Shown in pieces: positions 2,859 to 21,281 of a stretch of 24,664 nucleotides of DNA (positions within the stretch are counted from its first letter, which is position 1; every line of letters starts with the position of its first letter). The notes beneath the pieces were generated by a model. It was not told the origin of the DNA. It worked only from the letters and a program-made list of their open reading frames with translations, and made no database searches. The DNA is from Brasilonema angustatum HA4187-MV1 (lineage in GTDB: Bacteria > Cyanobacteriota > Cyanobacteriia > Cyanobacteriales > Nostocaceae), in the NCBI GenBank assembly GCA_019359695.1, contig JAHHGV010000081.1:1-24664 (forward strand), read 5' to 3'. The position numbers were made by a program, and so were the translations under genes.

Positions 2859-3572
2859 CTAAAATCCAGTTTCCTCACCCTCGTCATAACCAGCATATTG
2901 GTTGAGCCTTAGTCCATGTCGGTTAGTTTCCTCTAAGAATGAGTCATATCTTTGCTGTCGCACGTGCTGATATTGGTTGAAAGTTTCAGCGCTTAGATAC
3001 TTCCACACCGCAAAGATGTGTTTATCTGGCAATTGTCCTCTAGTTACTGGGTGCTTAAGTAAAATTTTGTAGGCGATCGCATCTTGTTCAAAAGCATTCA
3101 TTAATCCTCGATAGGCGTGACAAGTACAAGTCGCCTCATCTTCTCTCATTTCCACCTCGTAGAAGTCACCCGTGTTACCCAAAGCGATAAATCTATTCCA
3201 GTCATCTCCCAATTGCAGTTTATAGGGGTCTGATTTGGTTTTTGCTTTATCAATTAATACCTGCACATAGTCGCCTTTGCTAACGTGGCGGCTCAAGCCC
3301 TTAATTTTAATTGTTTCACCGCGTTTAACGATTTTGTTGGGGATATGCAGATATACACTGTGTTTCATCACATCTATGGTGATATGTTCACAGCCGATTT
3401 TAATATCTTCGGTACTCCATCCCCACTTTTGAAGTAAAACGCGAGTAGCTTCTACGTTGTAAAGGTGGTGAAGTGCATAATGGTCGCCTTCCTTGTGTCC
3501 TAAAAGCATCTGATGAAACTGTGAATAGGTGCGGTTGGGTTTTGCGTGAGCTTTTGCGATATTACGAGGCAT
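2859..3572 (-). CDS. Hypothetical protein with a SWIM-like zinc-finger pattern
   Basis: 237-aa ORF. CTCHAYRG...LPDKHIFAV resembles CxCx(n)CxH with the third Cys replaced by Asp. Amino-acid composition is normal. Confidence 0.6.
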   Translation of the reverse strand: MPRNIAKAHAKPNRTYSQFHQMLLGHKEGDHYALHHLYNVEATRVLLQKWGWSTEDIKIGCEHITIDVMKHSVYLHIPNKIVKRGETIKIKGLSRHVSKGDYVQVLIDKAKTKSDPYKLQLGDDWNRFIALGNTGDFYEVEMREDEATCTCHAYRGLMNAFEQDAIAYKILLKHPVTRGQLPDKHIFAVWKYLSAETFNQYQHVRQQRYDSFLEETNRHGLRLNQYAGYDEGEETGF

Positions 3573-3645
3573 TTTGATCTATCCTTAAAGTAGTTGAATT
3601 AGAAACAAGTCCTTAAAGGGGGAGAGACGCTCCCCCAAGGGCTTT

Positions 3646-3870
3646 TTAGAATGGAACTGTGTTGGTGCGGTTAAAGTAAACAGATAAATCATCGGGATTC
3701 ATCAAAATGGTTGCACCAGTGCTTTGAGAAACACAAACAAGGCGAACAAATGATTTTTGTTCGATGTTTTCAATGCAAGCGCCTACGATTTCAACAAAAT
3801 CCTTGATTACATCAATGTAAATAATTGCTGGGGTCAGGTTTTTAGTTTTCATGGTGTTTTGGTCGAACAC
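3646..3870 (-). CDS. Hypothetical small protein (74 aa)
   Basis: GTG at 3868-3870 lies 10 nt downstream of GAGGAG. It is divergent from the RHH gene. Confidence 0.5.
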   Translation of the reverse strand: MFDQNTMKTKNLTPAIIYIDVIKDFVEIVGACIENIEQKSFVRLVCVSQSTGATILMNPDDLSVYFNRTNTVPF

Positions 3871-3961
3871 GTTTTACTCACTCCTCTATTATAGCGTGAA
3901 TACTCGTATATGCAACAAATTTGTGATATGATTTACTTATGTCGCAAAGGAGCTAAATAGT

Positions 3962-4153
3962 ATGGGGAGAGGTAGACCAGGAGGTAACCCAAATTTGAGA
4001 GAGCATCAATTCACGAACGACGGAAGACCTGCTCGGAACAAAGTCTTGAGTATTCGGGTAACTGAGGAGGAGCTAACGGCTATTAGAAATTTCTTTGGAG
4101 ATCGCTGCTCAGAGCAGTGCAGAGACATCATTCTAAACCAATTGCAGCCATAA
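3962..4153 (+). CDS. Ribbon-helix-helix (CopG/MobC-like pattern) small DNA-binding protein
   Basis: AAGGAG lies 8 nt upstream of the ATG. A basic N-terminus (GRGRPGGNPNL) is followed by KVLSIRVTEEELTAIRNFF, typical of an RHH strand plus helix. It is followed by a strong terminator. Confidence 0.65.
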   Translation: MGRGRPGGNPNLREHQFTNDGRPARNKVLSIRVTEEELTAIRNFFGDRCSEQCRDIILNQLQP

Positions 4154-4178
4154 TTTGAAAAAGAAATACACCAAAGAG

Positions 4179-4249
4179 AAAGGGGTAAAGCTTTTTGAAT
4201 GCTTCACCCCTTTTTGTTTGGTTTCGTGGCGGGCAACGCAACCGCCACG
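4179..4249. terminator. Bidirectional intrinsic terminator pair between the convergent RHH gene and the adenine-starved gene
   Basis: Hairpin 1 pairs AAAGGGGTAAAGC (4179-4191) with GCTTCACCCCTTT (4201-4213) and is followed by TTTTTGTTTGGTTT. Hairpin 2 pairs CGTGGCGG (4225-4232) with CCGCCACG (4242-4249). On the minus strand the hairpins are followed by a T-rich tail. Confidence 0.7.
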
Positions 4250-4253
4250 AAAA

Positions 4254-4793
4254 CTAGAAAAGCGACAACTGAACTGGCGCGGGAGCGACCAACGCAGGAG
4301 AAAACTGAAACCAGCCAGGAGCACCAGACAAAGAAACCAAGCCCCAACCAACCGGACAAGGCAGTGAACCAAGGAAAACAAAACACGGCAAGCCAAGCCC
4401 AACACAAAAAGCTAGAGTGGACCAACTGCCAGAACCAAAACCAGCGAAGCAACGCGAGGAAGATGAGGACGGAACCAAGCCAGCCGGACACGGCGACGAA
4501 GGGAAAGAAACCAGCACACCATCAGCTGCCAAGAGCGCCAGAACAAAAGCCACCGAGCGACGAGCAAAAGCAGCACGACCTAAGCCAAACTGACCAGAAG
4601 CAACAGAGAAGACCCGCGCACCAGGGAACTGAGAACGAAAAAACTCATCAACGCCACGAGCGCACCCAACAAAAACCTGAGCACCGATTGGAACCGCCAA
4701 GGCAGCGGAAGACAGCGCAGAGGAAGACGCAGGCAGATGACGAGAGCCAGAAAAACCGAAGGTGTGAAAGTGGGAAAAAGCTGATGTAAGCAT
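4254..4793 (-). CDS. Adenine-starved CDS (179 aa), tentatively a SLOG/DprA/DUF2493-like Rossmann-fold protein
   Basis: This frame has clear 3-nt periodicity (GNT/NNT codons: GCT, GGT, GTT, TCT, CGT, TTT). A TATAAT-like box lies about 25-30 nt upstream of the ATG at 4791-4793, and the stop sits just before the terminator pair. Motif order is FSGSR ... VGCARGVDEF ... GRAAFARRS ... DGVLVSFPS ... GSGSWSTLA..GLGLP. There is no Lys, Asn or Tyr. Confidence 0.45.
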   Translation of the reverse strand: MLTSAFSHFHTFGFSGSRHLPASSSALSSAALAVPIGAQVFVGCARGVDEFFRSQFPGARVFSVASGQFGLGRAAFARRSVAFVLALLAADGVLVSFPSSPCPAGLVPSSSSSRCFAGFGSGSWSTLAFCVGLGLPCFVFLGSLPCPVGWGLVSLSGAPGWFQFSPALVAPAPVQLSLF

Positions 4794-5392
4794 GAAACTT
4801 GAGGAATTTTATGCTATTATTATAGCACGTATACACGTTAAATTAATAGTTTTTGTGAGTGAATGACGCAAACGCAGAGATAACACGCTGATAACACCTT
4901 CTTTTCTTCTTCTGCCGGGGTAGCGTAGCGGCGGCGCGGGAGCGCAGCGAACCGCGCAGAAACAACCGAGGAGGAAACAAATAACCGAAGTAGCGCGTGA
5001 GAGCAAGCGGCAAGGGCGTGGCAGCGCCGCCGCAAGCTTACCCAAACGAGTAAGCGTGAACTGCTTCAACGCGCGGGTAACGAATGCAAGCGCATTCCCT
5101 GGCGCAAAGTGCTTAAAAGCAAATCTTCAAGGGAAGCGATACGCGTCCTTTGAGTGCGCCCCCAAAGACTACGGGCACGCTTCCGCTATCGGGGCTAGCG
5201 TCAGCAAGCGGGCTTATCGCAGATTTCGGAAAGATTTCCTGTGTAAGCTTTTTTTGCGGGTTACCCATCGCACAGAAGTCTGTGGAAAAGTACTGTTTAC
5301 TATCCGGTTTTTCCACAATCAGCCAAATGACATCACTTTCGAGAGCAAACATTCGGAACATGGAAAGTAATGTCAATAGTTGAAAGACCTCG

Positions 5393-5776
5393 TCAGATGG
5401 GTGTATTTCCGTTACCTCCTTGTCTGAGCAGATATTCCCAAATACGCTGAATTTCGTTTCGGAATTCTTGGCGGTCAATGGCTGCTTGCTGCCTGTCTTG
5501 GGCTGCTTGCGCTCGGTCAAGTTCTGCTTGTGTGGCTAAGATATCTACTCGGTTGGTTACTTCAGCAACATTGGTAGTTAGTGCGTCTACTCTTTGGTTT
5601 ACTGCTGCGACATTTTCGGTTAACTGCTGGATGTTAGCAACCAGAACATCAATGGTGTTGCTTTGGGCGTTGATGTTAGCACTCTGGGCTAGCACTGCTT
5701 CGCCAACGTTGGCAAACAGAGTTTCTAAGCGGCTGAGTCGTTCTTCAATGCTTGGTGGTTGTCCTGCGTTGGTCAT
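5393..5776 (-). CDS. Coiled-coil protein (127 aa)
   Basis: AAGGAGG lies 5 nt upstream of the ATG. Heptad-like repeats are rich in N/V/A/Q (NVAAVNQRVDALTTNVAEVTNRVDIL). Confidence 0.7.
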   Translation of the reverse strand: MTNAGQPPSIEERLSRLETLFANVGEAVLAQSANINAQSNTIDVLVANIQQLTENVAAVNQRVDALTTNVAEVTNRVDILATQAELDRAQAAQDRQQAAIDRQEFRNEIQRIWEYLLRQGGNGNTPI

Positions 5777-5928
5777 TTGTCCTCCTTGGCTTCAAGTGTA
5801 GCGTGCCCGCAGGGCTTAGGGCGAGTGACTCGGAGTCATTTGTACAGAAGATTAGTTCGACGATTCGTTCTATTTTTTGTCTTCCTCCTGACTCCTGACT
5901 CATGACTCCTGAGTTCTTGGTTAAAGAT

Positions 5929-7122
5929 TTACTGCTTTGGCTTTGGTTTTGGCTTCGGCATATCCAAAGGTGCGGAACTTGCCCTTGGCTTGAAGTCACC
6001 TCTTGGCTTAAACGGTGGATTGTCGCTTCTTGGTGGTCGCGTATCCCTACCTGCAGCTCTATCAGCCGCTTTCTTTTCTGCCATTGCTGTTGCCTTGTCG
6101 TCCTTGCTTACTTTTAAGAATTTGGGCGGTTTCTCCAGTGGCACTCCTAACAGTGAGTCGAATTCAAATGCATTGCGCGATGGCTGAAATCTTGCTTTGA
6201 CTTGGACAAAGACTGGTCTACCCTGTTCTTCTTTTGTTGCTTTCGGGTTGAACCGAAACGGTGGAACTGGCGCATCCCTCCAGAACAGCGGCAGGTGAGA
6301 TGCTTTCATGAATTTCACTTTTTTCGCTGGTTCTGATTGCTTGACGTGTTCAAGCCGTTCTTTGGTAAAATTTCGGAAAATTGAGATACATGGAGTTCTA
6401 CACACAGGGATGAACTGCCACAAGCCACAGAGTTTAAACTCCAAATCTTGAAGTTCTTTTGATGGTACGTCTTTTTCTTGTTCCTCTCGTCCTTTGTCAA
6501 AACCAACGAGTTGAAAACCGACGTTAGGTTGCTGATCTCTTCCGGGGAAGTGGGTAAACCGTGGGTAAACTACTACTCGCTGAGTGCGATCTCCTGTCGC
6601 TTCTATTTCTTTTTTTAGTGCATCATATGCACGTTGCTTCTTGGGTGCGTAGAAGAGTGGGTATTCCTTTGCACCAATAGTGATACTGGCTACTGTTTTT
6701 TCGTTTTCGGTAGTAAAGGTCACATCCCCTCGAATAACGCCAACAGCTTGGAAGATGGTTCCGGGGGGGATTTCTATTTCCTGCTTTTTCTCTTCTTTAA
6801 CCGTTTCTTTTGATACTGTCTCTGGGGTGCTTGCTTCTGGTGGGGCTTCTGGAGTATTTACTTGTGCTGAAACTTCTGGTGGTTTTTCTGGAGTATTTAC
6901 TTGTGCTAAAACTTCTGGTGGTTTTTCTGGGGTTGCTTCTGGTGGTGATGGCTCTGTTAATTGTGTAACAGCAGGTATAGCTGGCTCTGTTACTGAGTCA
7001 TCAGTTTTTTTGGACTTGATTTCGAGTAACTGTGCGGACTTCTTTGTCCGTTTGACAGGTTTTTTTAATGGTTCACCCGATTCGGGTGAATTGTCGCCAT
7101 TAGTGGGAGGAGTGTTTACCAT
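5929..7122 (-). CDS. Hypothetical protein (397 aa) with a Pro/Glu-rich repeat linker (VNTPEKPPEV x2) and basic tails
   Basis: Long ORF with normal composition in the central domain (LWQFIPVCRTP..., PLFWRDAPVPPFRFNP). No family recognised. Confidence 0.7.
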   Translation of the reverse strand: MVNTPPTNGDNSPESGEPLKKPVKRTKKSAQLLEIKSKKTDDSVTEPAIPAVTQLTEPSPPEATPEKPPEVLAQVNTPEKPPEVSAQVNTPEAPPEASTPETVSKETVKEEKKQEIEIPPGTIFQAVGVIRGDVTFTTENEKTVASITIGAKEYPLFYAPKKQRAYDALKKEIEATGDRTQRVVVYPRFTHFPGRDQQPNVGFQLVGFDKGREEQEKDVPSKELQDLEFKLCGLWQFIPVCRTPCISIFRNFTKERLEHVKQSEPAKKVKFMKASHLPLFWRDAPVPPFRFNPKATKEEQGRPVFVQVKARFQPSRNAFEFDSLLGVPLEKPPKFLKVSKDDKATAMAEKKAADRAAGRDTRPPRSDNPPFKPRGDFKPRASSAPLDMPKPKPKPKQ

Positions 7123-7199
7123 AAATAAGTATCAGGTGTATTGTTCTTTTATTATGGAACCTGGTGATAAATTTCCAGGTTTCATAAATCTTAGATGTT

Positions 7200-9978: not shown

Positions 9979-12900
9979 CTACTTCGTTGCAGCACAACTA
10001 CTATTAGGCGCTGGCTGTTCACGCTGTGGACCAGTCTTAGTCGGATCATAAGCGACCAGCACCACCTCACCTTTTTCGTTATATATCCAACCTTGAGCAG
10101 GTACTATCTGTTTAACAGGTGGCTTTTTAGATGGTTGCTTTTGTGTTGGAGTTGTTAAACTTACTTTACTGGGGACAGGCTCAATTAAATCAACACGCAC
10201 ATTGTCACTACTGAGGATTTTATTTGGATCTGTTGGCAATCCCCCGCGTCCGGTGACAGTGAAAGTGCTACCAAAACCTTTGATACAGGGATTTTGAGCA
10301 ACCTGCTGTGCCGGATCAACCACAGTTTCTGTTAATTCAAATAACCCTTGGGTGGGGTCAATATCAACTACATTAATTAGCACATTACCACTCGACTGGT
10401 CATTTACCCCTGTGGCGGTGATGTCGCTTGTGTTTGGGGAAGCAGGATTACGAGACACAAAGCCAAAAATACCTCGGCTATTGATTTTGACATTACCGCC
10501 ACGGGAATTAGCAGAGTTAGCAGTGATATCGCTATTGTCAAAGCCAACCAGGACACCAGTATTAATATTGATGTTGCCGCCAATAACGTTTTCTCCTGTG
10601 GCGTTGGTTGTGATGTTGCTGTTGTTGCGCAAGATTAAATCTTTTGAAGTAATGTTAATTGTCGCTTGCTCCCTACTGGAGTCAACTTTAGCACTACGTG
10701 TATCGCCACTGAGTAAAGCATTGTTGTTTAAACGGATAGAGCGAGCATTTAATGTCATCTTGCCTGCGGTTCCTGTTCCGAAACTCTGCACGCTTACTCT
10801 TGCCCCATCTTGCACTAGCAAGGTATTGGTTCTAACTGTAAGATCACCCGCATCTCCTGTTGAGTTTCGATTTGCTTGAGCAAACAAGCCACTGGAAAGC
10901 TGACCATCAGCCCTTCTACCAATCAATTGCACATCTTGGGCATCAACAGTCAAACTACCCCCCTTGCCCGCACCAAAAGTGGTAGTACTTACCTGTGCTG
11001 TATCTCGCACTAGCAAAGTATTGGTTTTGATTGTAAGATCACCCGCATCCCCTGTTGAGTTTGGATTTGCATTAGCAAACAAGCCACTGCCATCACCATT
11101 AGCGCTTATACCAATCAATTGCACATCTTGGGCATCAACAGTCAAACTACCTCCCTTGCCCGCAGCATTAGTACTAGCATCTACCACTGCCCCATCTCGC
11201 ACGAGCAAGGAATTAGTTTTGATTGTCAAATCACCTGCATTCCCTGTTGAGTTTGCTTGAGCACTCAAGGCACTGGGAAGCCGACCATCAGCGCTTGTAC
11301 CAATCAGTTGCACATCTTGGGCATCAACAGTCAAACTACCCCCCTTGCCCGCACCGTAAGTGTTGTCACTTACCAGTGCCCCATCTCGCACGAGCAAGGT
11401 ATTGGTCTTGATTGTCAGATTACCCGCATTCCCTGTTGAGTTTGGCTGTGCAGAAGCAAACAAGCCACTGGAAACCCGACCATTAGCGCTTCTACCAATC
11501 AGTTGCACATCTTGGGCATCAACAGTCAAACTACCCCCCTTGCCCGCACCGGAAGTAGTAGTACTTACCTGTGCCCCATCTCGCACGAGCAAAGTATTGG
11601 TTTTGATAGTAATATCACCCGCATTCCCTATTGAGTTTCGCTGTGCATCAGCACTCAAGCTACTAGGAAAGCGACCATTAGCGCCTGTACCAATCAGTTG
11701 CACATCTTGGGCATCAACCCTTATATTTGCCCCCTTACCCGCACCGAAAGTGCTAGTATTTACCACTGCTCCATCTCGCACTAGCAAGGAATTGGTTTTG
11801 ATTATCAAATCACCTGCATCCCCTGTTGAGTTTTGCTGTGCAGAAGCACCCAAGCTACTGCCAAACCGACTATCAACGCTTCTACCAATCAATTGCACAT
11901 CTTGGGTATCAACAGTCAAACTACCCCCCTTGCCCGCACCGTAAGTACTAGTACTTACCTGTGCCCCACCCTCAAGCCGCAAGCTGCTAGCACTGATATT
12001 GACATCACCTCCCTGTCCATTTGCTCTTGATCCCACCTGATTAGCAATTCGACTGTTGTTAAGGTTTATTGCTCCTGTGGCATTAACCGAAATGTTTCCT
12101 GCTTGAGTATCAACTGTCCCCAAACCATCTCCTATTCCAGCCTGAAGCAAACTTCCTCCCGTCATCTCTAAATTACGGGCATTAACTGCAATACTACCGC
12201 CCCCACCTGAGCTAACATCAACGAGCGCAGCATTCGTCAGCGATACATCCGCTCTTTGCACTCCCACAGGAAAACTCAAACTTCCATCACCATTGAGTTC
12301 TATCGTCCCAGCAGCAGACAATCCTCCTAACTCAACTCGTCCTCCTGGTGCAAACAGTATTCCACCATCTAAGTTGACGTTACCACCCACCAGTGCTAAT
12401 GAATTTCCTTCTGGAACAGTAAGACCATTAACAACATTGCCATTATTATCAACAGCCCTCGACTGATTGCTGATATTTTTGAAATTCTCCCGATAGCTCA
12501 ACCCAACTGGAGCAGTTATCGTTAACAATGGTGGTGCTTGGGGATTCGTTGCACTAAACTCAAAATTATTCTTAAACAGCAAACTATTTGCCGTACTTCC
12601 CAAAAAAGAACCACCTACATCCAACCGCGCATTTCGTCCGAAGATAATTCCATTCGGGTTGATAAAAAACAAGTTCGCTTTGCCCAACACACCCAAAACA
12701 CCTTGAATGTTCGAGATATTCCCCCCAGTCACTCTGGTGAGTATGTTTGCAATCCCCGCTGGATTGGAAAAATAAGCTCCTCTACCAGCATTGATATTAA
12801 ATTCCTGAAAACTATGAAACAGGTTCGCCCCACGCTTTGCGCCCCCATCAATCCTGTCGCTAGGGATGCCCTTAATCACATCCTGTGTGACACGGGAGTT

Positions 12901-13020
12901 CTCCGCGCCCAGCGTGTTATCAGGAGTAATTTGTGCTTTGGCTACGGTAAAGTAGGTCAAGCTGAATACAGCTGCAAGGGGTAAGGTGAGGAGAAAGAGT
13001 GGGTGACGCACTTGTTCCAT
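9979..13020 (-). CDS. Filamentous-haemagglutinin-type exoprotein with an N-terminal two-partner-secretion (TPS) domain and a beta-helical repeat body
   Basis: Signal-peptide-like start MEQVRHPLFLLTLPLAAVFSLTYFTVAKA (ATG at 13018-13020). TPS hallmarks are NLFHSFQEFNI and NILTRVTGGNISNIQG...LFFINPNGIIFG. There are about 8 repeats of roughly 60 aa (GAGKGGSLTVDAQDVQLIG...NSTGNAGDLTIKTNTLLVRDGA). Confidence 0.85.
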   Translation of the reverse strand: MEQVRHPLFLLTLPLAAVFSLTYFTVAKAQITPDNTLGAENSRVTQDVIKGIPSDRIDGGAKRGANLFHSFQEFNINAGRGAYFSNPAGIANILTRVTGGNISNIQGVLGVLGKANLFFINPNGIIFGRNARLDVGGSFLGSTANSLLFKNNFEFSATNPQAPPLLTITAPVGLSYRENFKNISNQSRAVDNNGNVVNGLTVPEGNSLALVGGNVNLDGGILFAPGGRVELGGLSAAGTIELNGDGSLSFPVGVQRADVSLTNAALVDVSSGGGGSIAVNARNLEMTGGSLLQAGIGDGLGTVDTQAGNISVNATGAINLNNSRIANQVGSRANGQGGDVNISASSLRLEGGAQVSTSTYGAGKGGSLTVDTQDVQLIGRSVDSRFGSSLGASAQQNSTGDAGDLIIKTNSLLVRDGAVVNTSTFGAGKGANIRVDAQDVQLIGTGANGRFPSSLSADAQRNSIGNAGDITIKTNTLLVRDGAQVSTTTSGAGKGGSLTVDAQDVQLIGRSANGRVSSGLFASAQPNSTGNAGNLTIKTNTLLVRDGALVSDNTYGAGKGGSLTVDAQDVQLIGTSADGRLPSALSAQANSTGNAGDLTIKTNSLLVRDGAVVDASTNAAGKGGSLTVDAQDVQLIGISANGDGSGLFANANPNSTGDAGDLTIKTNTLLVRDTAQVSTTTFGAGKGGSLTVDAQDVQLIGRRADGQLSSGLFAQANRNSTGDAGDLTVRTNTLLVQDGARVSVQSFGTGTAGKMTLNARSIRLNNNALLSGDTRSAKVDSSREQATINITSKDLILRNNSNITTNATGENVIGGNININTGVLVGFDNSDITANSANSRGGNVKINSRGIFGFVSRNPASPNTSDITATGVNDQSSGNVLINVVDIDPTQGLFELTETVVDPAQQVAQNPCIKGFGSTFTVTGRGGLPTDPNKILSSDNVRVDLIEPVPSKVSLTTPTQKQPSKKPPVKQIVPAQGWIYNEKGEVVLVAYDPTKTGPQREQPAPNSSCAATK

Positions 13021-13232
13021 GTTTAAAAACAGTATTGTAAGAGGAGTCGTCAAATTACCGTCTTTAAATACTCATACCAGGTTTTTAGACAAAAGTGCGC
13101 TTTTTATAACTTTTTTTTGAAAAAAGGCACGGATAATTTCCTTAACTAAACTGTATTGGTTTCCCTTTCCCCCTTAACCTTTAACCTTTTCCCTGTCCTC
13201 CAGGCATTGACCTTTTCCCCCGACTTCTACTG

Positions 13233-13461: not shown

Positions 13462-14112
13462 ATGCCTTCTGTGATAATTCGGAAGAAAGCAATACTAGAA
13501 TTTGGTATTGGCTTGTCTTTACTGATTGCAATTGCGATCTGTTCTTACAATAGCTTAAATAAGCTAAACAACGCGGTTACATGGGTCAAGCATACTTATT
13601 TAACAAAAGAAAGTTTAGACGCGCTTAAGACTGATTTAATCAGCGCTGAAAGTAGTCAAAGGGGTTACTTGCTCACAGGAAAATCACAATATCTCACAGA
13701 AACTTATATTGCGATTGAGCGTGTTTACTTAAGTGAGTCGTATTTGTCGGGTCTTGTAATTGATAACTCTAGCCAGTTTAAGAAAGTTCAAAGTCTTTAC
13801 AAAGTTATTGAAAAGCGTCTTGCAGTTCTCCGAAATGTTGCTGAGTTAAAGGAGTCTGGAAAAGTTGAAGAAGTTTACACAATTGTTTCTAGCAGTAAAG
13901 GTAAAATCCTAATGGATGAAGTTTTAAACAAGATACGAGAGATAAAAGTGATTGAGGACGGGCTTTTGGAAAAGAGGCTAGATGAGCTAGAAACTAGCTA
14001 CCAAACCACAACAAGCATAATCATATTTGGTGGGGTGATATCGATAGTTATTGTTTTTGGAGCAATGACGATTATCAACAATATTGGACACAGCAGTAAG
14101 TCGGTGGTTTAA
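13462..14112 (+). CDS. Stand-alone CHASE3 sensor-domain protein with N- and C-terminal transmembrane helices and no output domain
   Basis: WVKHTYLTKESLDALKTDLISAESSQRGYLLTG...YL matches the CHASE3 signature (W..HT...aE..qRGYllTG). There is a hydrophobic helix at each end. Confidence 0.75.
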   Translation: MPSVIIRKKAILEFGIGLSLLIAIAICSYNSLNKLNNAVTWVKHTYLTKESLDALKTDLISAESSQRGYLLTGKSQYLTETYIAIERVYLSESYLSGLVIDNSSQFKKVQSLYKVIEKRLAVLRNVAELKESGKVEEVYTIVSSSKGKILMDEVLNKIREIKVIEDGLLEKRLDELETSYQTTTSIIIFGGVISIVIVFGAMTIINNIGHSSKSVV

Positions 14113-15767: not shown

Positions 15768-15871
15768 TTATCGCTTCGCTCCTGGGTATAGAGGTGTGGG
15801 GGTGTAGGGGAAAGACTTGAAAATGTACACCCCTAAGAGTGCAATGGGGTTTTAGACCCCAACCGATTGCT

Positions 15872-15945
15872 CCCCCCCCCCTACACCCTTATACCCTTAT
15901 ACCCTTATACCCTTACACCCCTACACCCTTACACCCTTACACCCC
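15872..15945. repeat. C10 homopolymer followed by about 8 tandem octamers (CCCTTATA/CCCTTACA)
   Basis: The C-run is at 15872-15881 and octamers extend to 15945. They are complementary to GGGTATAGAGGTGTGGGGGTGTAGGGG at 15784-15810. Confidence 0.85.
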
Positions 15946-15965
15946 TTCTTTTTTACTTTGGTCAT

Positions 15966-17942
15966 ATGAACTCTTCTGTAGACTTGACTCAACATATGAC
16001 CAGCCTGTTTAAGGCTGGCGTGTTGGATGTCAATCTTTTTTCTTACCTCAAGTTACGCAAGCTGAACCCAACCGGACCAGTAACGCTTGACAGCAATGTT
16101 TACTCTGGTACTCAAATAAGTGCTGATTTATTTAACGTTGCGGCAGCACTATGGCAAAAGGGACTGGTCAAAATCAATCCGTTTCCTAACGTAACGGTGA
16201 GATTTTCTAATGAACCAGATGCATTGTCAGAAGCAGAGATACTGCGATCGCAAGATACTATCAGTTCATCAACTCATATCTTCAATGCACTGCAAGGCGA
16301 ATCTTCCAGACTGAACGCTGAGACAGTTGTCATCGATGACGCTTTTCGTACCAGATGGAAAGTTACAACTGATGACCTGCTTAGATATTTACCTGGTGTT
16401 TTGAAAAAAGCGTATGAAGCTGACAGATTAGATACCTTTTATTCTGCTAATCCATCTTTGGTATGGACAGCTACAGCTACACACAACCCCAGTGAGACTA
16501 CGGAAGCTGATTTAAAATCTTTGTTTGCCTTGGGTTTATCCAATGAAGCTTACTTCTTCTGGATTCTCAACGCTTTCTTGGAATTGCGATCGCCCATCCA
16601 AGCCGACCTTGCAGAAATTGGTGACGAGTGGGGACTTGACGCTGATAATGCACTTGGTGCAGCTGCTGACTTGGTTACTGCCAAAGTGATGACAACTTAC
16701 CAAGCGGATTCAATCAACGTAGTTTGGTTAAAAACCTTGTCAACACTTGGCACCGCAGAAATTGATTACGCTGGTGCATTGATGAGCGCAGAAGGCAAAA
16801 TGATGTATCAACTCTGGAAGTACAACAGTCCGGTTGAACCATCTTTGTTTTCAACGCTCAACGGTGTTACTCTAGCTAACTTCTATAAAAACCTTAGAAG
16901 AATCAAAGCAAAAGGCATTATTGATATTAGCACGTCAAATCTCACGGCTACTTGGTCAGCAGTTTACAACCCACCTCCACCATCAAATGCACTGAGGGCA
17001 CCAACAGGTGTTACAGTCACAGCAATCGACTCATCGAAAATTCGGGTGACTTGGACACAGCCAAGCTCAGGAGTTGCTGCAACAAACTGGCGTGTTATGT
17101 ATCGTGTGAAGAATAGCGGTGTTGCTTACTCAGAAAAGAATCCAGCAACTTCACCAGCTGTCGTTACTGGCTTGAGTGCTAGCACAGAGTATGAAGTATA
17201 TGTTTACTCTGAAGGCGGCGGTGACTTGAAACCATCTAACACGGCTTACGGTAGCACGACAGCTGCGAGTAGCGGTGGTAACGCTAGTGGTAGTGGTAGT
17301 GGTAGCGCTAGTGGTGGTAACAACACCCCAACAATCCCAACCAATCACACCATTTGGTTAAAGTTTGACCCAGGTGAACTGCAAACAAACTCTGGAAGCT
17401 ATGGACCAGTTGCAACAACAGGGGACTCAATTACCAGTGTCACCAATAGTGGGCACGGCAACACAGTCAAACTTGGTGAGAATAGTGGTTTTGTTGTGTA
17501 CAATCAACCACAACCAGCTGCATACACCAGAAGCGCTTGGATAAAAATCACAGAATATTTTGATTGGTCTGCTTTGTTTGGAGCAGAGACAGGAACAGAA
17601 GCCAACCGTCACAACTTGATGGTGAATGAAGATCATTCGTTTGCACTGTGGAGTAACTACGATTGGATAGCTACATATGATTGGGTAATTCCGTTGAACC
17701 AGTGGGTACACGTGGCAAGCACCTTTGAGAATGGTGCATTCAAGCTTTATGTAAACGGTGCGCTGGTCATGACTGAGAATAATCTCACTTATGCACCAGA
17801 CTCAACAAACAGCACAGTATTTATTGGATTGATGGGATTTGGAAATGCTTCTTGGAACAACTATATAGATGATGTCGTGTGGTATTCAAGAGCGTTAACC
17901 CAGGCTGAAGTTACGCAGTTGTATCAAGTTACGACTGTGTGA
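15966..17942 (+). CDS. Multidomain protein: four repeats of an approximately 85-aa (winged-helix-like?) domain, an FN3 domain, a Gly/Ser linker and a LamG/concanavalin-A-like lectin domain
   Basis: I prefer the ATG at 15966 (MNSSVDL...) because the upstream part of the track ORF is the octamer repeat. FN3: PTGVTVTAIDSSKIRVTWTQP...STEYEVYVYS. LamG_3-like: AWIKI...WVHVASTFENGAFKLYVNGALV...IDDVVWYSRALTQAEVTQLY. Confidence 0.8.
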   Translation: MNSSVDLTQHMTSLFKAGVLDVNLFSYLKLRKLNPTGPVTLDSNVYSGTQISADLFNVAAALWQKGLVKINPFPNVTVRFSNEPDALSEAEILRSQDTISSSTHIFNALQGESSRLNAETVVIDDAFRTRWKVTTDDLLRYLPGVLKKAYEADRLDTFYSANPSLVWTATATHNPSETTEADLKSLFALGLSNEAYFFWILNAFLELRSPIQADLAEIGDEWGLDADNALGAAADLVTAKVMTTYQADSINVVWLKTLSTLGTAEIDYAGALMSAEGKMMYQLWKYNSPVEPSLFSTLNGVTLANFYKNLRRIKAKGIIDISTSNLTATWSAVYNPPPPSNALRAPTGVTVTAIDSSKIRVTWTQPSSGVAATNWRVMYRVKNSGVAYSEKNPATSPAVVTGLSASTEYEVYVYSEGGGDLKPSNTAYGSTTAASSGGNASGSGSGSASGGNNTPTIPTNHTIWLKFDPGELQTNSGSYGPVATTGDSITSVTNSGHGNTVKLGENSGFVVYNQPQPAAYTRSAWIKITEYFDWSALFGAETGTEANRHNLMVNEDHSFALWSNYDWIATYDWVIPLNQWVHVASTFENGAFKLYVNGALVMTENNLTYAPDSTNSTVFIGLMGFGNASWNNYIDDVVWYSRALTQAEVTQLYQVTTV

Positions 17943-19031: not shown

Positions 19032-21281
19032 ATGAGCGAGCACCTAAGTCCAGAAGAAATTTTGCAGAGCATTCTCCAGAATGTTCAGATAGGTGGCAAT
19101 CTGACTACAGGGGATATTACCCAAATCCTAAATTTAATAGTTGTTATCAAACAGATTGATTCTTTCAAGCCGACTGAGATTCCTCAAAATGTTCCCCGCA
19201 GTGGCACGATTAAGTTTGTGGGTCGTGCCGAGGCACTAGAGAGGCTGCACCAAATGTTGCAACAGAACAATCAGATAGTGCTTGCTGCTATTGAGGGCAT
19301 GGGTGGAGTTGGGAAAACGGAGTTAGCCACCCAGTATGCACTAATTCACTTGCTAGTTAGCACCTATACGGGTGGTATTTGCTGGTTACGAGCTAGAGAT
19401 GAAGATATTGGTTTGCAAATTGTGCAGTTTGCCATGACAGACTTAGGCTTGCAACCTCCAGATAATTTAGATTTACAACAGCAAACACGTTGGTGCTGGT
19501 CACGTTGGTATCAGGGAAATGTGCTAGTCGTGCTGGATGATGTCAACGATTACCAGAAGGTGGAGCCATACCTACCACCGCAATCACCCCGTTTTAAGGT
19601 GCTAATTACGACACGCTTGCAGTTAGACGACCTGACTGAGTCATCTAGATTTATCTTAGATGTGTTAAGTGAGTCGGCAGCAATTGAACTTCTTGAGGGG
19701 TGGATTGAGGCTTCAAAAATTAAACAGGAATTGGCAGATGCCAAAGAACTTTGTCAATGGCTGGGCTATTTGCCTCTAGCGCTAAATCTAGTAGGACGGT
19801 ATGTTAAGAAGCGGAAACTGTCCTTAGCAGAAATGCTGCGGAGGTTAAAGGAAAAAAAGTTAAGTCATGAATCTTTGGTACGTGATAGCAATGATCGTAC
19901 TTTGGCGTTAAATATTAAGCGTGGAGTTGAAGCTGCCTTTGAGTTGAGTTGGGAAGAATTAAGTAAAGATGCTCAAAAGCTAGGGTGTCTGCTCAGTTTA
20001 TTTGCTTTGGCTCCGTTTCCTTGGTCGCTGGTAGAAAGTGCTGCCCCTGAGCAAGACGCAGAAGAACTGGAAGATGCCAGAGTTGAATTAGAAAACTTGC
20101 ACTTGCTTATGGGTGAAGATAGTTATCAGTTACATCCACTGATTCAAGAGTTTCTCAGAGACAAGCAAAATAACTTAGCTGTTAAAGAAGAACAAAAATA
20201 TAATTACTGCGTTGCAATGGTTGCTGTTGCGGAGAAAATTCCTCAAAGCCTTATATTACAAGAAATTACTACATCCACTATTGTTATCCCCCACCTTGCT
20301 GAAGTTGCCACTGTTTACAATAATTGGTTAAGTGATGAAGATTTAATTATGCCTTTTAGGGCCTTAAGTCGATTTTTTCAAGGTCAAGGAGCTTATGCAC
20401 AAGCTTTACCTTGGTTAGAGCAATGTTTATCAGTTGCAAAAAATCGCTTGGGAGAAGAGCATCCCCATGTTGCCACCAGTTATAACAACTTGGGAGTACT
20501 CTACTGTGAACAAGGACTGTACAACGAAGCTGAACTACTGTACAAAAAAGCATTGGAACTCAGGCTACACCTGCTGGGAGAAGAGCATCCCCATGTCACT
20601 ACCAGTTACAACAACTTAGCAGCAGTCTACCAATCGCTTGGACGGTACAACGAAGCTGAACCATTGTACATTAAAGCATTGGAACTCAGGCTACGCCGGG
20701 GAGAAGAGCATCCCGATGTTGCCACTACTTTCAACAATTTGGCTAATCTCTACCGTGGCCAAAAACGGTACAGTGAAGCTGAACCACTCTACCGAAAAGC
20801 ATTGGAACTCAGGCTACGCCGGGGAGAAGAGCATCCCAATGTTGCCGAGACTTACAACAACCTGGCAGGACTCTACTCAGACCAAGATCGGTACAGTGAA
20901 GCTGAACCACTGTTCATAAAAGCATTGGAACTTTATCAACACTTACTGGGAGAAGAGCATCCCAATGTTGCCACCACTTACAACAACCTGGCAGCAGTCT
21001 ACTCAGACCAAAAACGGTACAGTGAAGCTGAACCACTCTACCGAAAAGCTTTAGAACTAAGGCAACGCTTACTGGGAGAAAAGCATCCTCAGATCGCCAC
21101 CACTTACAACAACTTGGCTAATCTCTACCGTGACCAAGAACGGTACAGTGAAGCTCAACTACTATACCAAAAAGCTTTGAAAATTGCTGAACTTAGCTTA
21201 GGAGTTGATCATGACATTACAAAACTTATCCGTGAAAATATGACAGAAAATATGACATTTTTGGCAGATAATGACGCTTAA
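19032..21281 (+). CDS. NB-ARC (STAND NTPase) protein with C-terminal TPR repeats (NLR architecture) and a short N-terminal signalling motif
   Basis: Walker A is GMGGVGKT (19296-19319), Walker B is VLVVLDDV, plus ITTR and GYLPLAL (GLPL motif). There are about 7 TPR_12-type 42-aa repeats (EEHP.VA..YNNLA.LY..Q.RY.EAEPLY.KALEL). The N-terminus is LQNVQIGGNLTTGDITQ. Confidence 0.9.
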   Translation: MSEHLSPEEILQSILQNVQIGGNLTTGDITQILNLIVVIKQIDSFKPTEIPQNVPRSGTIKFVGRAEALERLHQMLQQNNQIVLAAIEGMGGVGKTELATQYALIHLLVSTYTGGICWLRARDEDIGLQIVQFAMTDLGLQPPDNLDLQQQTRWCWSRWYQGNVLVVLDDVNDYQKVEPYLPPQSPRFKVLITTRLQLDDLTESSRFILDVLSESAAIELLEGWIEASKIKQELADAKELCQWLGYLPLALNLVGRYVKKRKLSLAEMLRRLKEKKLSHESLVRDSNDRTLALNIKRGVEAAFELSWEELSKDAQKLGCLLSLFALAPFPWSLVESAAPEQDAEELEDARVELENLHLLMGEDSYQLHPLIQEFLRDKQNNLAVKEEQKYNYCVAMVAVAEKIPQSLILQEITTSTIVIPHLAEVATVYNNWLSDEDLIMPFRALSRFFQGQGAYAQALPWLEQCLSVAKNRLGEEHPHVATSYNNLGVLYCEQGLYNEAELLYKKALELRLHLLGEEHPHVTTSYNNLAAVYQSLGRYNEAEPLYIKALELRLRRGEEHPDVATTFNNLANLYRGQKRYSEAEPLYRKALELRLRRGEEHPNVAETYNNLAGLYSDQDRYSEAEPLFIKALELYQHLLGEEHPNVATTYNNLAAVYSDQKRYSEAEPLYRKALELRQRLLGEKHPQIATTYNNLANLYRDQERYSEAQLLYQKALKIAELSLGVDHDITKLIRENMTENMTFLADNDA

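Follow-up and report, generated by a model that had tools for sequence, protein, structure and literature searches.

Nucleotide-level purging of adenine from the coding strand of a gene family found in many phyla and predicted to have a DprA/SLOG fold

Canonical DprA proteins consist of an N-terminal SAM-like domain, a Rossmann domain and a C-terminal winged-helix domain, and to our knowledge none of the known DprA/SLOG members has been reported to be adenine-free. We also know of no natural protein-coding gene family described as excluding one of the four bases. Engineered mRNAs lacking ACA survive MazF, and natural avoidance of toxin and restriction motifs exists. Diversity-generating retroelements (DGRs) are, as far as we know, the only well-known prokaryotic or phage process that singles out adenine in coding sequence. 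In vertebrates, ALREX elements are adenine-poor signal-sequence coding regions of secretory mRNAs (PMC2100149, PMC3635865). Here we analysed a stretch of 24,664 nt (hereafter the window), a contig of the metagenome-assembled genome of Brasilonema angustatum HA4187-MV1, and show that one of its minus-strand genes belongs to a family, present in many phyla, that is under a nucleotide-level pressure purging adenine from the coding strand. This purge forces the protein into an alphabet of roughly ten amino acids. The gene in question is:

4254..4793, minus strand: adenine-poor coding sequence (CDS) of a 179-aa protein with a predicted DprA/SLOG fold, GenBank KME46_33755 (evidence: composition, homologues, dN/dS, AlphaFold2 model)

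With ACA-less mRNAs and MazF the gene would share the principle that the sequence recognised by an enzyme is removed, so that one message or gene outlives the others. There, however, a motif of 3-7 nt is lost through synonymous changes and the protein is unaltered, whereas here a whole base is removed and the protein is rebuilt from about ten amino acids, across hundreds of lineages. Like the ALREX elements, the gene is an adenine-depleted coding segment whose effect would be exerted at the RNA level rather than via the protein. ALREX elements are short 5′ segments (tens of nucleotides) acting in eukaryotic nuclear export; in contrast, an entire bacterial CDS except for its first codons is depleted here, which is the opposite polarity. 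DGRs have in common with it the specificity for adenine and an overlapping host range, but the locus has no reverse transcriptase, no pair of template and variable repeats (TR/VR) and no hypervariable region, and adenine is absent rather than variable.

On the plus strand, positions 4229-4770 of the window (542 nt) contain 220 A (40.6%), 157 C, 143 G and 22 T (4.1%). Against the 29.2% T of the whole window, the binomial probability of 22 or fewer T in 542 nt is 1.6e-51. An earlier note on this DNA, made from the sequence alone, had arrived at exactly the same count of T; its estimate of about 45% A was too high, as our recount gives 41%. In the sliding analysis of composition and AT skew that the note had proposed, the T depletion combined with a skew peak is unique to this tract: the skew has its maximum of +0.83 at 4229-4770 and such a value nowhere else in the window. 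T falls below 8% per 100 nt in one further stretch only (4911-5056, described below). The note had also described all six reading frames as open. This holds for the coding frame and for the plus-strand frame 4199-4789, which run the full length; the other frames are interrupted. Across 72 homologues the alternative frames mostly contain stops, which rules out that frames are kept open as a selected feature. Open alternative frames are a by-product.

The minus-strand open reading frame (ORF) 4254-4793 is identical (100%) to the annotated Brasilonema hypothetical protein KME46_33755. It has 27 A in 540 nt (5%), of which 6, 12 and 9 fall at codon positions 1, 2 and 3, and its 179-aa product is devoid of Lys, Asn and Tyr, as had been read from the translation before. 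The proposal that this frame is a real gene is borne out by purifying selection, by 328 homologues and by a confidently predicted fold. In the coding frame, dN/dS is ~0.1-0.15 among close pairs, with a median of 0.146 among Nostocales, and a codon alignment of non-redundant homologues has column entropies of 0.98, 0.81 and 1.56 bits at codon positions 1, 2 and 3. Four of the five other frames have dN/dS values of 1.25-2.56. The fifth, an antisense frame, has a value of 0.28, an expected artefact because it shares its wobble positions with the sense frame. These ratios rule out the plus-strand ORF 4199-4789 and the remaining frames as true genes. Thus, 4254-4793(-) is a genuine gene under purifying selection.

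Homologues share the avoidance of adenine, a check that the earlier note had asked for. In 98 loci, the coding strand contains a median of 3.4% A and as little as 0.2%, or one to two A in ~400 nt, while the flanks of these loci contain 12-37% A and their GC content spans 31-73%. T shows no increase in high-GC hosts (e.g. 1.5% A and 18% T), so the bias is an exclusion of A and not an enrichment of T. The lost A is replaced by T, C or G following the composition of the host, not chiefly by G.

Codon statistics were derived from 72 non-redundant adenine-poor genes (11,796 codons) and compared with neighbouring ORFs of the same loci. A accounts for 2.5, 3.4 and 3.0% of codon positions 1, 2 and 3. 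At four-fold degenerate sites its share is 3.2%, compared to 20.3% in the neighbouring ORFs. Arginine is encoded by AGR and CGN codons in a ratio of 12:746 (about 1:4 in the neighbours) and serine by AGY and TCN codons in a ratio of 86:1682 (about 3:5 in the neighbours); TTA and CTA codons are absent and NNG codons are used freely (33%). At third positions the choice between T, C and G is close to random (1.56 bits), with pS at ~0.55-0.6 even among Nostocales. Third positions have therefore been randomised without admitting A, which means that the exclusion was kept through complete synonymous turnover.

A meta-profile over the genes places A at 18-26% in the 50 nt ahead of the start and at 15%, 9% and 7% in the first three 10-nt bins. 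It is down to 2-3% in the gene body, with 3% reached near codon 10 and 2% in the stretch before the stop, and regains the background of 27% about 50 nt past the stop. The depletion is thus largely limited to the CDS, where it is far stronger than in the leader or the post-stop region.

The effect on the protein is large. In the 51 most adenine-poor members, ten amino acids (A, S, G, V, P, L, F, R, C and W) make up 95% of the residues, and relative to relatives of normal composition Ile is replaced by Val, Tyr by Phe, Thr by Ser, and Lys by Ser, Arg or Ala. Asp49 and Gln175 are invariant although they cannot be encoded without A. Asp (GAY), Gln (CAG) and Met persist in every member, and codons for Thr, His, Ser (UCA) or Lys are often found among the first 10.

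In the window, the gene is surrounded by the following features:

4794..4830, minus strand: promoter and short A-containing leader (extended -10 element TGCTATAAT at 4827-4819; leader of ~20 nt, ending at the ATG 4793-4791)
4170..4261, no strand assigned: two adjacent hairpins, likely a bidirectional terminator region (inverted repeats 4213-4232/4242-4261 and 4170-4194/4198-4222)
3962..4153, plus strand: convergent ribbon-helix-helix protein, 63 aa (weak, sub-threshold match to the NikA-like, mobilisation accessory family Pfam PF21983, E 0.033)
2859..3572, minus strand: SWIM-like neighbour with a CxCH motif, 237 aa, downstream of the adenine-poor gene (evidence: translation, neighbour clustering)

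The TATAAT-like box pointed out in the earlier note is an extended -10 element of the TGnTATAAT type located 25 nt ahead of the ATG, and a gtgcTATAAT element recurs at a similar distance in most cyanobacterial homologues. A promoter consensus scan did not list it because a good -35 hexamer is absent. The hairpins are found at and past the stop codon TAG (4256-4254), between the adenine-poor gene and the convergent ribbon-helix-helix gene. Judged from the inverted repeats they are likely to form a bidirectional terminator region; a terminator scan gave no score to the hairpins in 4170..4261. The family of the 237-aa protein follows the adenine-poor gene in 14 related loci, and the protein itself has no match in Pfam.

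The AlphaFold2 model of the 179-aa protein, built from an alignment of 94 sequences, has a mean predicted local distance difference test score (pLDDT) of 93.2 and a predicted template modelling (TM) score of 0.88. It consists of a single alpha/beta domain with alternating strands and helices and a disordered C-terminal tail. The conserved motifs of the family are GFSGSR, VGCAxGVD, RRS and GSGSGSWASLA, within which F14-S15-G16 and G43-C44-x-x-G47-x-D49 contain the invariant residues. The window protein belongs to no Pfam family even at E 0.1, and neither the protein nor its profile matched Pfam, PHROGs or PDB sequences. Structural comparison was more productive. In BFVD, the first match is a phage homologue (A0A345MZJ9, 52% identity), and further matches are phage proteins described as 'YspA cpYpsA-related SLOG'/DUF2493 and DprA-like proteins (probability 1.0, E 1e-3 to 7e-3, TM 0.44-0.53). 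The best structural matches in the PDB are weak and correspond to LOG (5its, 5zbl, 5zbj) and ShosA (8zva), with E 0.1-0.3, probability 0.5-0.8 and TM 0.33-0.36.

Relatives of normal composition provide a link at the sequence level. One of them, P0175, scores 31.3 bits against PF02481 (DNA_processg_A), for which the gathering score is 29.6, and others fall just below the cut-off with E values of 1e-4 to 6e-3. Through these relatives the adenine-poor family is therefore related to DprA, although the window protein fails the Pfam model itself. The order of motifs that the earlier note had likened to SLOG, DprA and DUF2493 proteins agrees with the BFVD matches, with the Pfam match of P0175 and with the conserved motif order of the family.

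In its model, the window protein has the Rossmannoid fold, the Gly-rich loop after strand 1 and the structural likeness to known members that define the SLOG superfamily. With the DprA/SLOG proteins, including phage YspA/DUF2493 (PF10686) and PF02481, it shares a Rossmann-type fold, a GxSGSR loop after strand 1, a GxD motif after strand 2, and encoding by phages or plasmids; Foldseek assigns a probability of 1.0 to several phage YspA/DUF2493 and DprA-like models. It differs in comprising the core domain only (~175 aa), without the SAM-like and winged-helix domains that complete the canonical DprA architecture. It also lacks the LOG motif PGGxGTxxE, in place of which it has G-x-G-S-G-S-W-A-S-L, with no Glu. 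On the basis of this model, the protein is predicted to be a single-domain member of the DprA/SLOG assemblage that is neither a canonical DprA nor a LOG enzyme. Because of its fold, its ssDNA-annealing, SSB-like, AlkB-like and ArdA neighbours (ssDNA, single-stranded DNA) and one fusion to a DarG-type macrodomain among its relatives, we suggest that it may bind ssDNA or ADP-ribose-derived ligands, protecting or repairing incoming or replicating element DNA. It is probably a counter-defence or recombination-mediator factor that binds ssDNA or ADP-ribose/nucleotides.

A word-indexed search found the 328 homologues, which are mostly 170-190 aa long and 55-71% identical. An exhaustive profile search of 1.84 billion cluster representatives extended the family to 733 clusters at E<=1e-3, 547 at E<=1e-10 and 164 at E<=1e-30 (clusters counted at 50% identity). 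The hosts are mainly Cyanobacteria; others are Rhodothermales and other Bacteroidota, Blastocatellia, Chloroflexota, Chlorobium, Ignavibacteria, Nevskiales, Desulfobacteraceae, Abditibacterium and a Thermosynergistes prophage. The family is also found on IMG/VR viral contigs, and tblastn places the gene on 19 cyanobacterial plasmids. The same program returned no family match in 50,697 GenBank phage records.

Related loci are prophage-like, plasmid-like or resemble integrative and conjugative elements (ICEs), and carry integrases, DnaB, RusA, lysins, DdrB, Sipho_Gp157 and SNF2 helicases. Clustering the flanking ORFs of ~90 loci revealed recurrent neighbours: two SWIM-like proteins (one being the window protein 2859-3572), a thermonuclease (SNase), DdrB, annealing proteins of the ERF, Rad52-like and AAA_24 (Sak4-type) families, ArdA, a C5 methyltransferase and a UvrD-like helicase. 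In at least 10 loci a gene for an AlkB-like oxygenase is immediately beside the adenine-poor gene. The position is that of early anti-restriction and ssDNA genes: the gene lies beside such genes, is co-oriented with them and has a strong promoter, with ArdA, ERF, Rad52, AAA_24, DdrB, Gp157 and SNase downstream or nearby in related loci and plasmids. Gene order and content thus point to a gene that heads, or is part of, an early module for anti-restriction and recombination in plasmids, ICEs and prophages. In the window, the sole hint of a mobilisation context is the weak NikA-like neighbour. In the Thermosynergistes prophage (L003-L005), the adenine-poor gene is found two ORFs after a gene with a dGTP_diPhyd_N domain (PF18909), which we take to be MazZ-like.

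Two copies are present on plasmid pSYSX of Synechocystis PCC 6803, one of which is SGL_RS01470 (locus L105, 5872-6435; 23270-23833 of the record). This copy starts with GTG, contains 8 A in its 564 nt and has a leader that is A-poor and lies behind TGCTATAAT. It follows slr6021 and precedes genes for ArdA, Gp157 and Rad52; slr6021 has been listed as an AlkB homologue (PMC3265494). From the gene order after slr6021, SGL_RS01470 and its duplicate are probably slr6022/slr6081, a gene of unknown function for which alleles at frequencies of at least 80% were described after high-light laboratory evolution (review, PMC13515095).

The rest of the contig encodes a 1024-aa TPS-domain (two-partner secretion) protein at 9979-13053(-) and, among 13462-14112(+), 15867-17942(+) and 19032-21281(+), a CHASE3 sensor fragment, a protein with fn3 and laminin-G domains and an NB-ARC/TPR STAND protein. 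This is typical accessory content of filamentous cyanobacteria and not obviously part of the mobile module.

The avoidance of adenine is graded within the family. Among the 150 best cluster representatives, the fraction of residues from the ten-letter alphabet ranges from 0.50 to 0.997 with a median of 0.89, and ORFs of up to 509 aa reach 92-99.7%. Fully normal composition is found in some relatives on viral contigs (L094, L099). Other homologues are half-relaxed (L086 2758-3309, L088 1360-1908, L096 5983-6504 and L097 4100-4606): A at third positions is at a normal 24-34% in the 5′ half and still low, at 8-19%, in the 3′ half. This pattern could be due to recombination or to a genuine 5′-3′ polarity of the constraint.

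One relative of normal base composition, P0160 (L104 8001-8963), is a fusion of a SLOG-like domain to a DarG-type macrodomain (PF01661, E 3e-22). The macrodomain matches 5M31, 5M3E and 5M3I at E 1e-50, which are the DarG entries of the DarTG paper (PMC5179494). Phages are reported to carry DarG-like counter-defence (PMC13309987). The fusion is the likeness of the family to DarG-type antitoxins; the difference is that the window protein has no TARG1/DarG-like macrodomain and that the fused relative is not adenine-poor. A nucleoside 2-deoxyribosyltransferase gene is located 3 kb upstream of P0160 in the same locus, and a weak macrodomain ORF (6745-7176) is found 2 kb downstream of the adenine-poor gene in L057.

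The same elements carry other adenine-poor sequences. These include a second adenine-poor paralogue of the SLOG domain and an unrelated adenine-poor domain of ~115 aa (fam2) with the motif VRPSxRSFSxWVCVCSF...RVSVPC. This domain is either fused N-terminally to a DprA/SLOG-like domain or encoded separately, a few kb off and on either strand; 28 stand-alone homologues are found in Nostocales. Its AlphaFold2 core is alpha-beta-beta-alpha-beta-beta (pLDDT 77-95), and the model gave no structural match. Adenine-poor tracts of 110-600 nt are also present upstream of many homologues. The individual sequences are:

fam2 as a separate ORF or domain: L001 14853-15206; L007 10137-10559, minus strand; L008; L015; L020; P0103
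fam2 fused to a SLOG-like domain: L055 5620-6471; L056; L076; L088
4911..5056 of the window, minus strand: second adenine-poor tract, ~146 nt, upstream of the promoter, with a 20-nt inverted repeat 4918-4937/5024-5043 (remnant, small ORF or RNA)
~400-nt A-free element upstream of the gene: L026 322-755; L028 5470-5858; L035 5446-5903; L041 5380-5803; L044 3519-4043; L045 5462-5912

The tract 4911-5056 resembles only a sequence of Brasilonema sp. CT11 (L034) and has no convincing ORF, and an Rfam scan of window positions 3500-6000 gave no match. A single-stranded-DNA promoter or ssi-type hairpin was considered and rejected for it: the tract has no excess fold stability (z ~0.2) and is kept in one Brasilonema relative only. 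The ~400-nt A-free element lies immediately upstream of the gene in Nodosilinea-/Phormidium-type loci and is conserved at the DNA level; it may be a reading frame or an RNA. In the Thermosynergistes prophage a separate 150-nt adenine-poor intergenic tract is found upstream of the gene (L003-L005, 6410-6757, 7082-7237). The sole other single-base-poor stretches of the window are far weaker than the T depletion at 4229-4770. They are 15842-16002 (+), with less than 8% G per 100 nt, and 6756-6855 (+), with less than 8% A per 100 nt, inside the Pro/Glu-rich repeat part of a 397-aa ORF at 5929-7122(-).

By what mechanism might such a purge be maintained? We favour, at somewhat less than even confidence, that an early gene for counter-defence or ssDNA handling can still be expressed under base-directed immunity because a target base is omitted from it. 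Every adenine in the message, and hence every thymine in the template, would carry a hazard. The purge would turn the coding part of the transcript into a non-substrate for base-specific nucleic-acid attack by host immunity, and the protein could thus still be made after such a defence has fired. The cost of each adenine would be weighed against function and would act from just past the ribosome-covered start to the stop. That Asp49 and Gln175 are kept despite needing A is as expected from such a trade. The leading candidate is an attack on single-stranded mRNA at adenosines, by a Csx1-type HEPN RNase, by A-requiring mRNA interferases or by CmdT-type ADP-ribosylation of adenine N6, in preference to an attack on the template. 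A is present in most mRNA-interferase motifs. The Csx1 of Pyrococcus is an adenosine-specific endoribonuclease (PMC4712672), and CmdT ADP-ribosylates adenine N6 in GA dinucleotides of single-stranded RNA, which blocks translation (PMC11618068). The adenine-poor fam2 and SLOG paralogue, one an unrelated family, count in favour of target-base omission, as do the early, anti-defence and ssDNA-related company of the gene and the fusion of one relative to a DarG-type macrodomain.

Several observations weigh against it. A is abundant in many leaders (31%), and the constraint is relaxed over the first ~10 codons, so the hazard is not absolute along the transcript; we assume that ribosome coverage or the need for an unstructured start could explain this relaxation. 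Residual A is barely more base-paired than relocated A (0.289 vs 0.310 unpaired, p 0.045), and with an effect this marginal we rejected the idea that residual A is hidden in RNA stems. GA dinucleotides are mildly under-represented (observed/expected (O/E) 0.62-0.64), a mild effect for which CmdT-type GA avoidance was set aside as well. The macrodomain-fused relative P0160 is not adenine-poor, and several other relatives have normal or half-normal composition, which makes the pressure lineage-dependent. Moreover, sequence data alone leave hazards to RNA adenine and to template thymine inseparable.

The target could alternatively be T in the template strand: without T, the template would escape DarT-type ADP-ribosylation of ssDNA and TT/TC photoproducts and would always be readable by RNA polymerase. 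DarG is an eraser of thymidine ADP-ribosylation on ssDNA, and the strongest clue to such a target is the DarG-type macrodomain of P0160, yet this relative has normal composition and is not A-poor. A module centred on ssDNA (DdrB, single-strand annealing proteins, AlkB-like proteins) fits as well, and selection would be needed only from promoter to stop codon, which agrees with the CDS-limited meta-profile; A runs, however, are frequent in leaders. DarT motifs need two or more T within 3-4 nt, whereas the purge here extends to isolated A, and AA exceeds expectation among residual A (O/E 2.2). As for light, many hosts live in sunlit habitats but the family also occurs in Thermosynergistes and Desulfobacteraceae, which do not, and 48% of residual A precede G, forming a dimerisable 5′-CT in the template, a sequence context that led us to reject UV dimers as having shaped the residual A. 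We regard a thymine-free template as an unlikely explanation. Selection at the level of decoding is less probable still. To decode any codon that contains A, a tRNA must have U in its anticodon, and many such tRNAs carry hypermodified U34, Q34 or t6A37; these codons might be avoided so that the gene stays translatable after tRNA destruction by anticodon nucleases or U-preferring RNases. The depletion is indeed limited to the CDS and includes third-position A, and the scarce amino acids (Lys, Asn, Tyr, His, Gln, Glu, Asp, Thr and Ile) match tRNAs that are known targets of anticodon nucleases. Nonetheless, Asp, Gln and Met codons are present in every member and A-codons occur near the N-terminus; since a single codon that cannot be decoded would cost the whole protein, tRNA loss of an all-or-none kind does not fit. 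The equal depletion at the three codon positions is at odds with a position-specific tRNA logic, and free use is made of NNG codons (33%), which U34 tRNAs often read.

We assign a small probability to a scarcity of adenine nucleotides, in which the gene would be transcribable when ATP is depleted or converted (Detocs/Cap17-type ATP nucleosidases, RADAR deaminase), its RNA needing almost no ATP. A cost that depends on the count of A fits the quantitative purge and the absence of constraint past the stop, and SLOG/LOG-fold proteins act on adenine nucleotides. But A-rich leaders (31% A) would stall the polymerase first, tRNA charging in translation itself consumes ATP, and no link to ATP-degrading systems was found in the loci examined. 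Equally improbable is a mutational origin, in which a mutator specific for adenine drives the sequence to an absorbing A-free state that is not itself selected. Such a mutator could be a reverse transcriptase of the DGR type that copies the gene's own RNA or, where transcription is very strong, deamination of A on the non-template strand exposed by it. Depletion that is equal at all codon positions, including synonymous sites, would be expected of a mutational origin, and DGRs are common in the phyla that host the family. However, no reverse transcriptase domain was found in the window ORFs scanned and no such cluster among the conserved neighbours in ~100 loci (no dedicated reverse transcriptase model was run), and no TR/VR repeat pair either, the sole direct repeat in 4100-5200 being a 20-nt two-copy match. 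The boundaries of the tract follow start and stop codons rather than a template repeat, A is replaced according to host composition rather than mainly by G, two unrelated protein families of the same elements are purged while immediate neighbours are untouched, and the protein is still under purifying selection. Avoidance of motifs in the DNA duplex is marginally less probable again. By logic, the tract is free of Dam sites, of palindromic restriction sites with A or T, of -10 hexamers and of silencer sites rich in TpA, and ArdA marks the module as anti-restriction. Yet GGCC, CCGG, GCGC and CGCG are plentiful, at just 6-14% below the expectation from synonymous shuffling, so restriction-type palindromes as such are not avoided; sparing one gene from cleavage does not rescue the replicon, and motif avoidance does not demand that isolated synonymous A be purged to 3%. 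Least credible is selection for a protein without Lys, Asp, Glu, Asn, Tyr and the like (e.g. to escape Lys-directed tagging), with the nucleotide bias as a secondary effect. The ten-residue composition (95% F, L, S, C, W, P, R, V, A and G) and the Lys-, Asn- and Tyr-free window protein are what it would predict, but synonymous sites are purged as strongly as other sites (3% A at four-fold sites, CGN over AGR, TCN over AGY, no TTA or CTA) in loci whose neighbouring genes have 20% A at four-fold sites, and protein-level selection therefore fails. Among the causes offered as possibilities in the earlier note, an RNA-level reason is accordingly still the leading candidate, whereas a purely protein-level cause is contradicted by the purged synonymous sites and general palindrome avoidance by the barely depleted GC-only palindromes.

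Full-text literature searches for genes free of adenine or depleted in it yielded no description, the matches being confined to yeast media, cardiology and the short adenine-poor signal-sequence regions of vertebrate mRNAs. The fold of the protein is a known one, of which it forms a new branch, and its coding style is without precedent that we could find. Such genes are easily overlooked. For example, RefSeq calls an antisense hypothetical protein, NOS7524_RS30500, over the adenine-poor gene of Nostoc sp. PCC 7524 plasmid pNOS7524.01 (L106, 14001-14438), and on plasmids of Synechococcus elongatus PCC 11801 and Microcystis the gene is unannotated (the plasmid matches H9, H10 and H17 are also affected). 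Annotation pipelines are thus prone to miss adenine-poor genes or to call the wrong strand.

The family is a natural experiment in reduced amino-acid alphabets, a predicted Rossmann-type fold made with 95% ten-letter residues, and bears on protein design and on hypotheses of the early code. It would also represent a new category of sequence-level adaptation, and counter-defence genes may be found by scanning for ORFs depleted in a single base. The two copies on pSYSX of the model cyanobacterium Synechocystis PCC 6803 make the question directly testable. The purge implies a strong and phylogenetically broad hazard for each adenine or template thymine, which makes the family a handle for finding and ranking base-directed immune mechanisms. 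Returning to target-base omission, mobile elements across bacterial phyla may keep a few early genes in a three-base code (U, C and G), which give folded, working proteins built from some ten amino acids and whose messages or thymine-free templates escape adenine- or thymine-directed immunity, a proposal that we hold tentatively, with a chance approaching but not reaching one half. If true, it would constitute a new principle of counter-defence, immunity by omitting the target base, and the family would be the genomic footprint of a widespread base-specific defence, such as RNases specific for A, or the modification of A or T by ADP-ribosylation or in another way.

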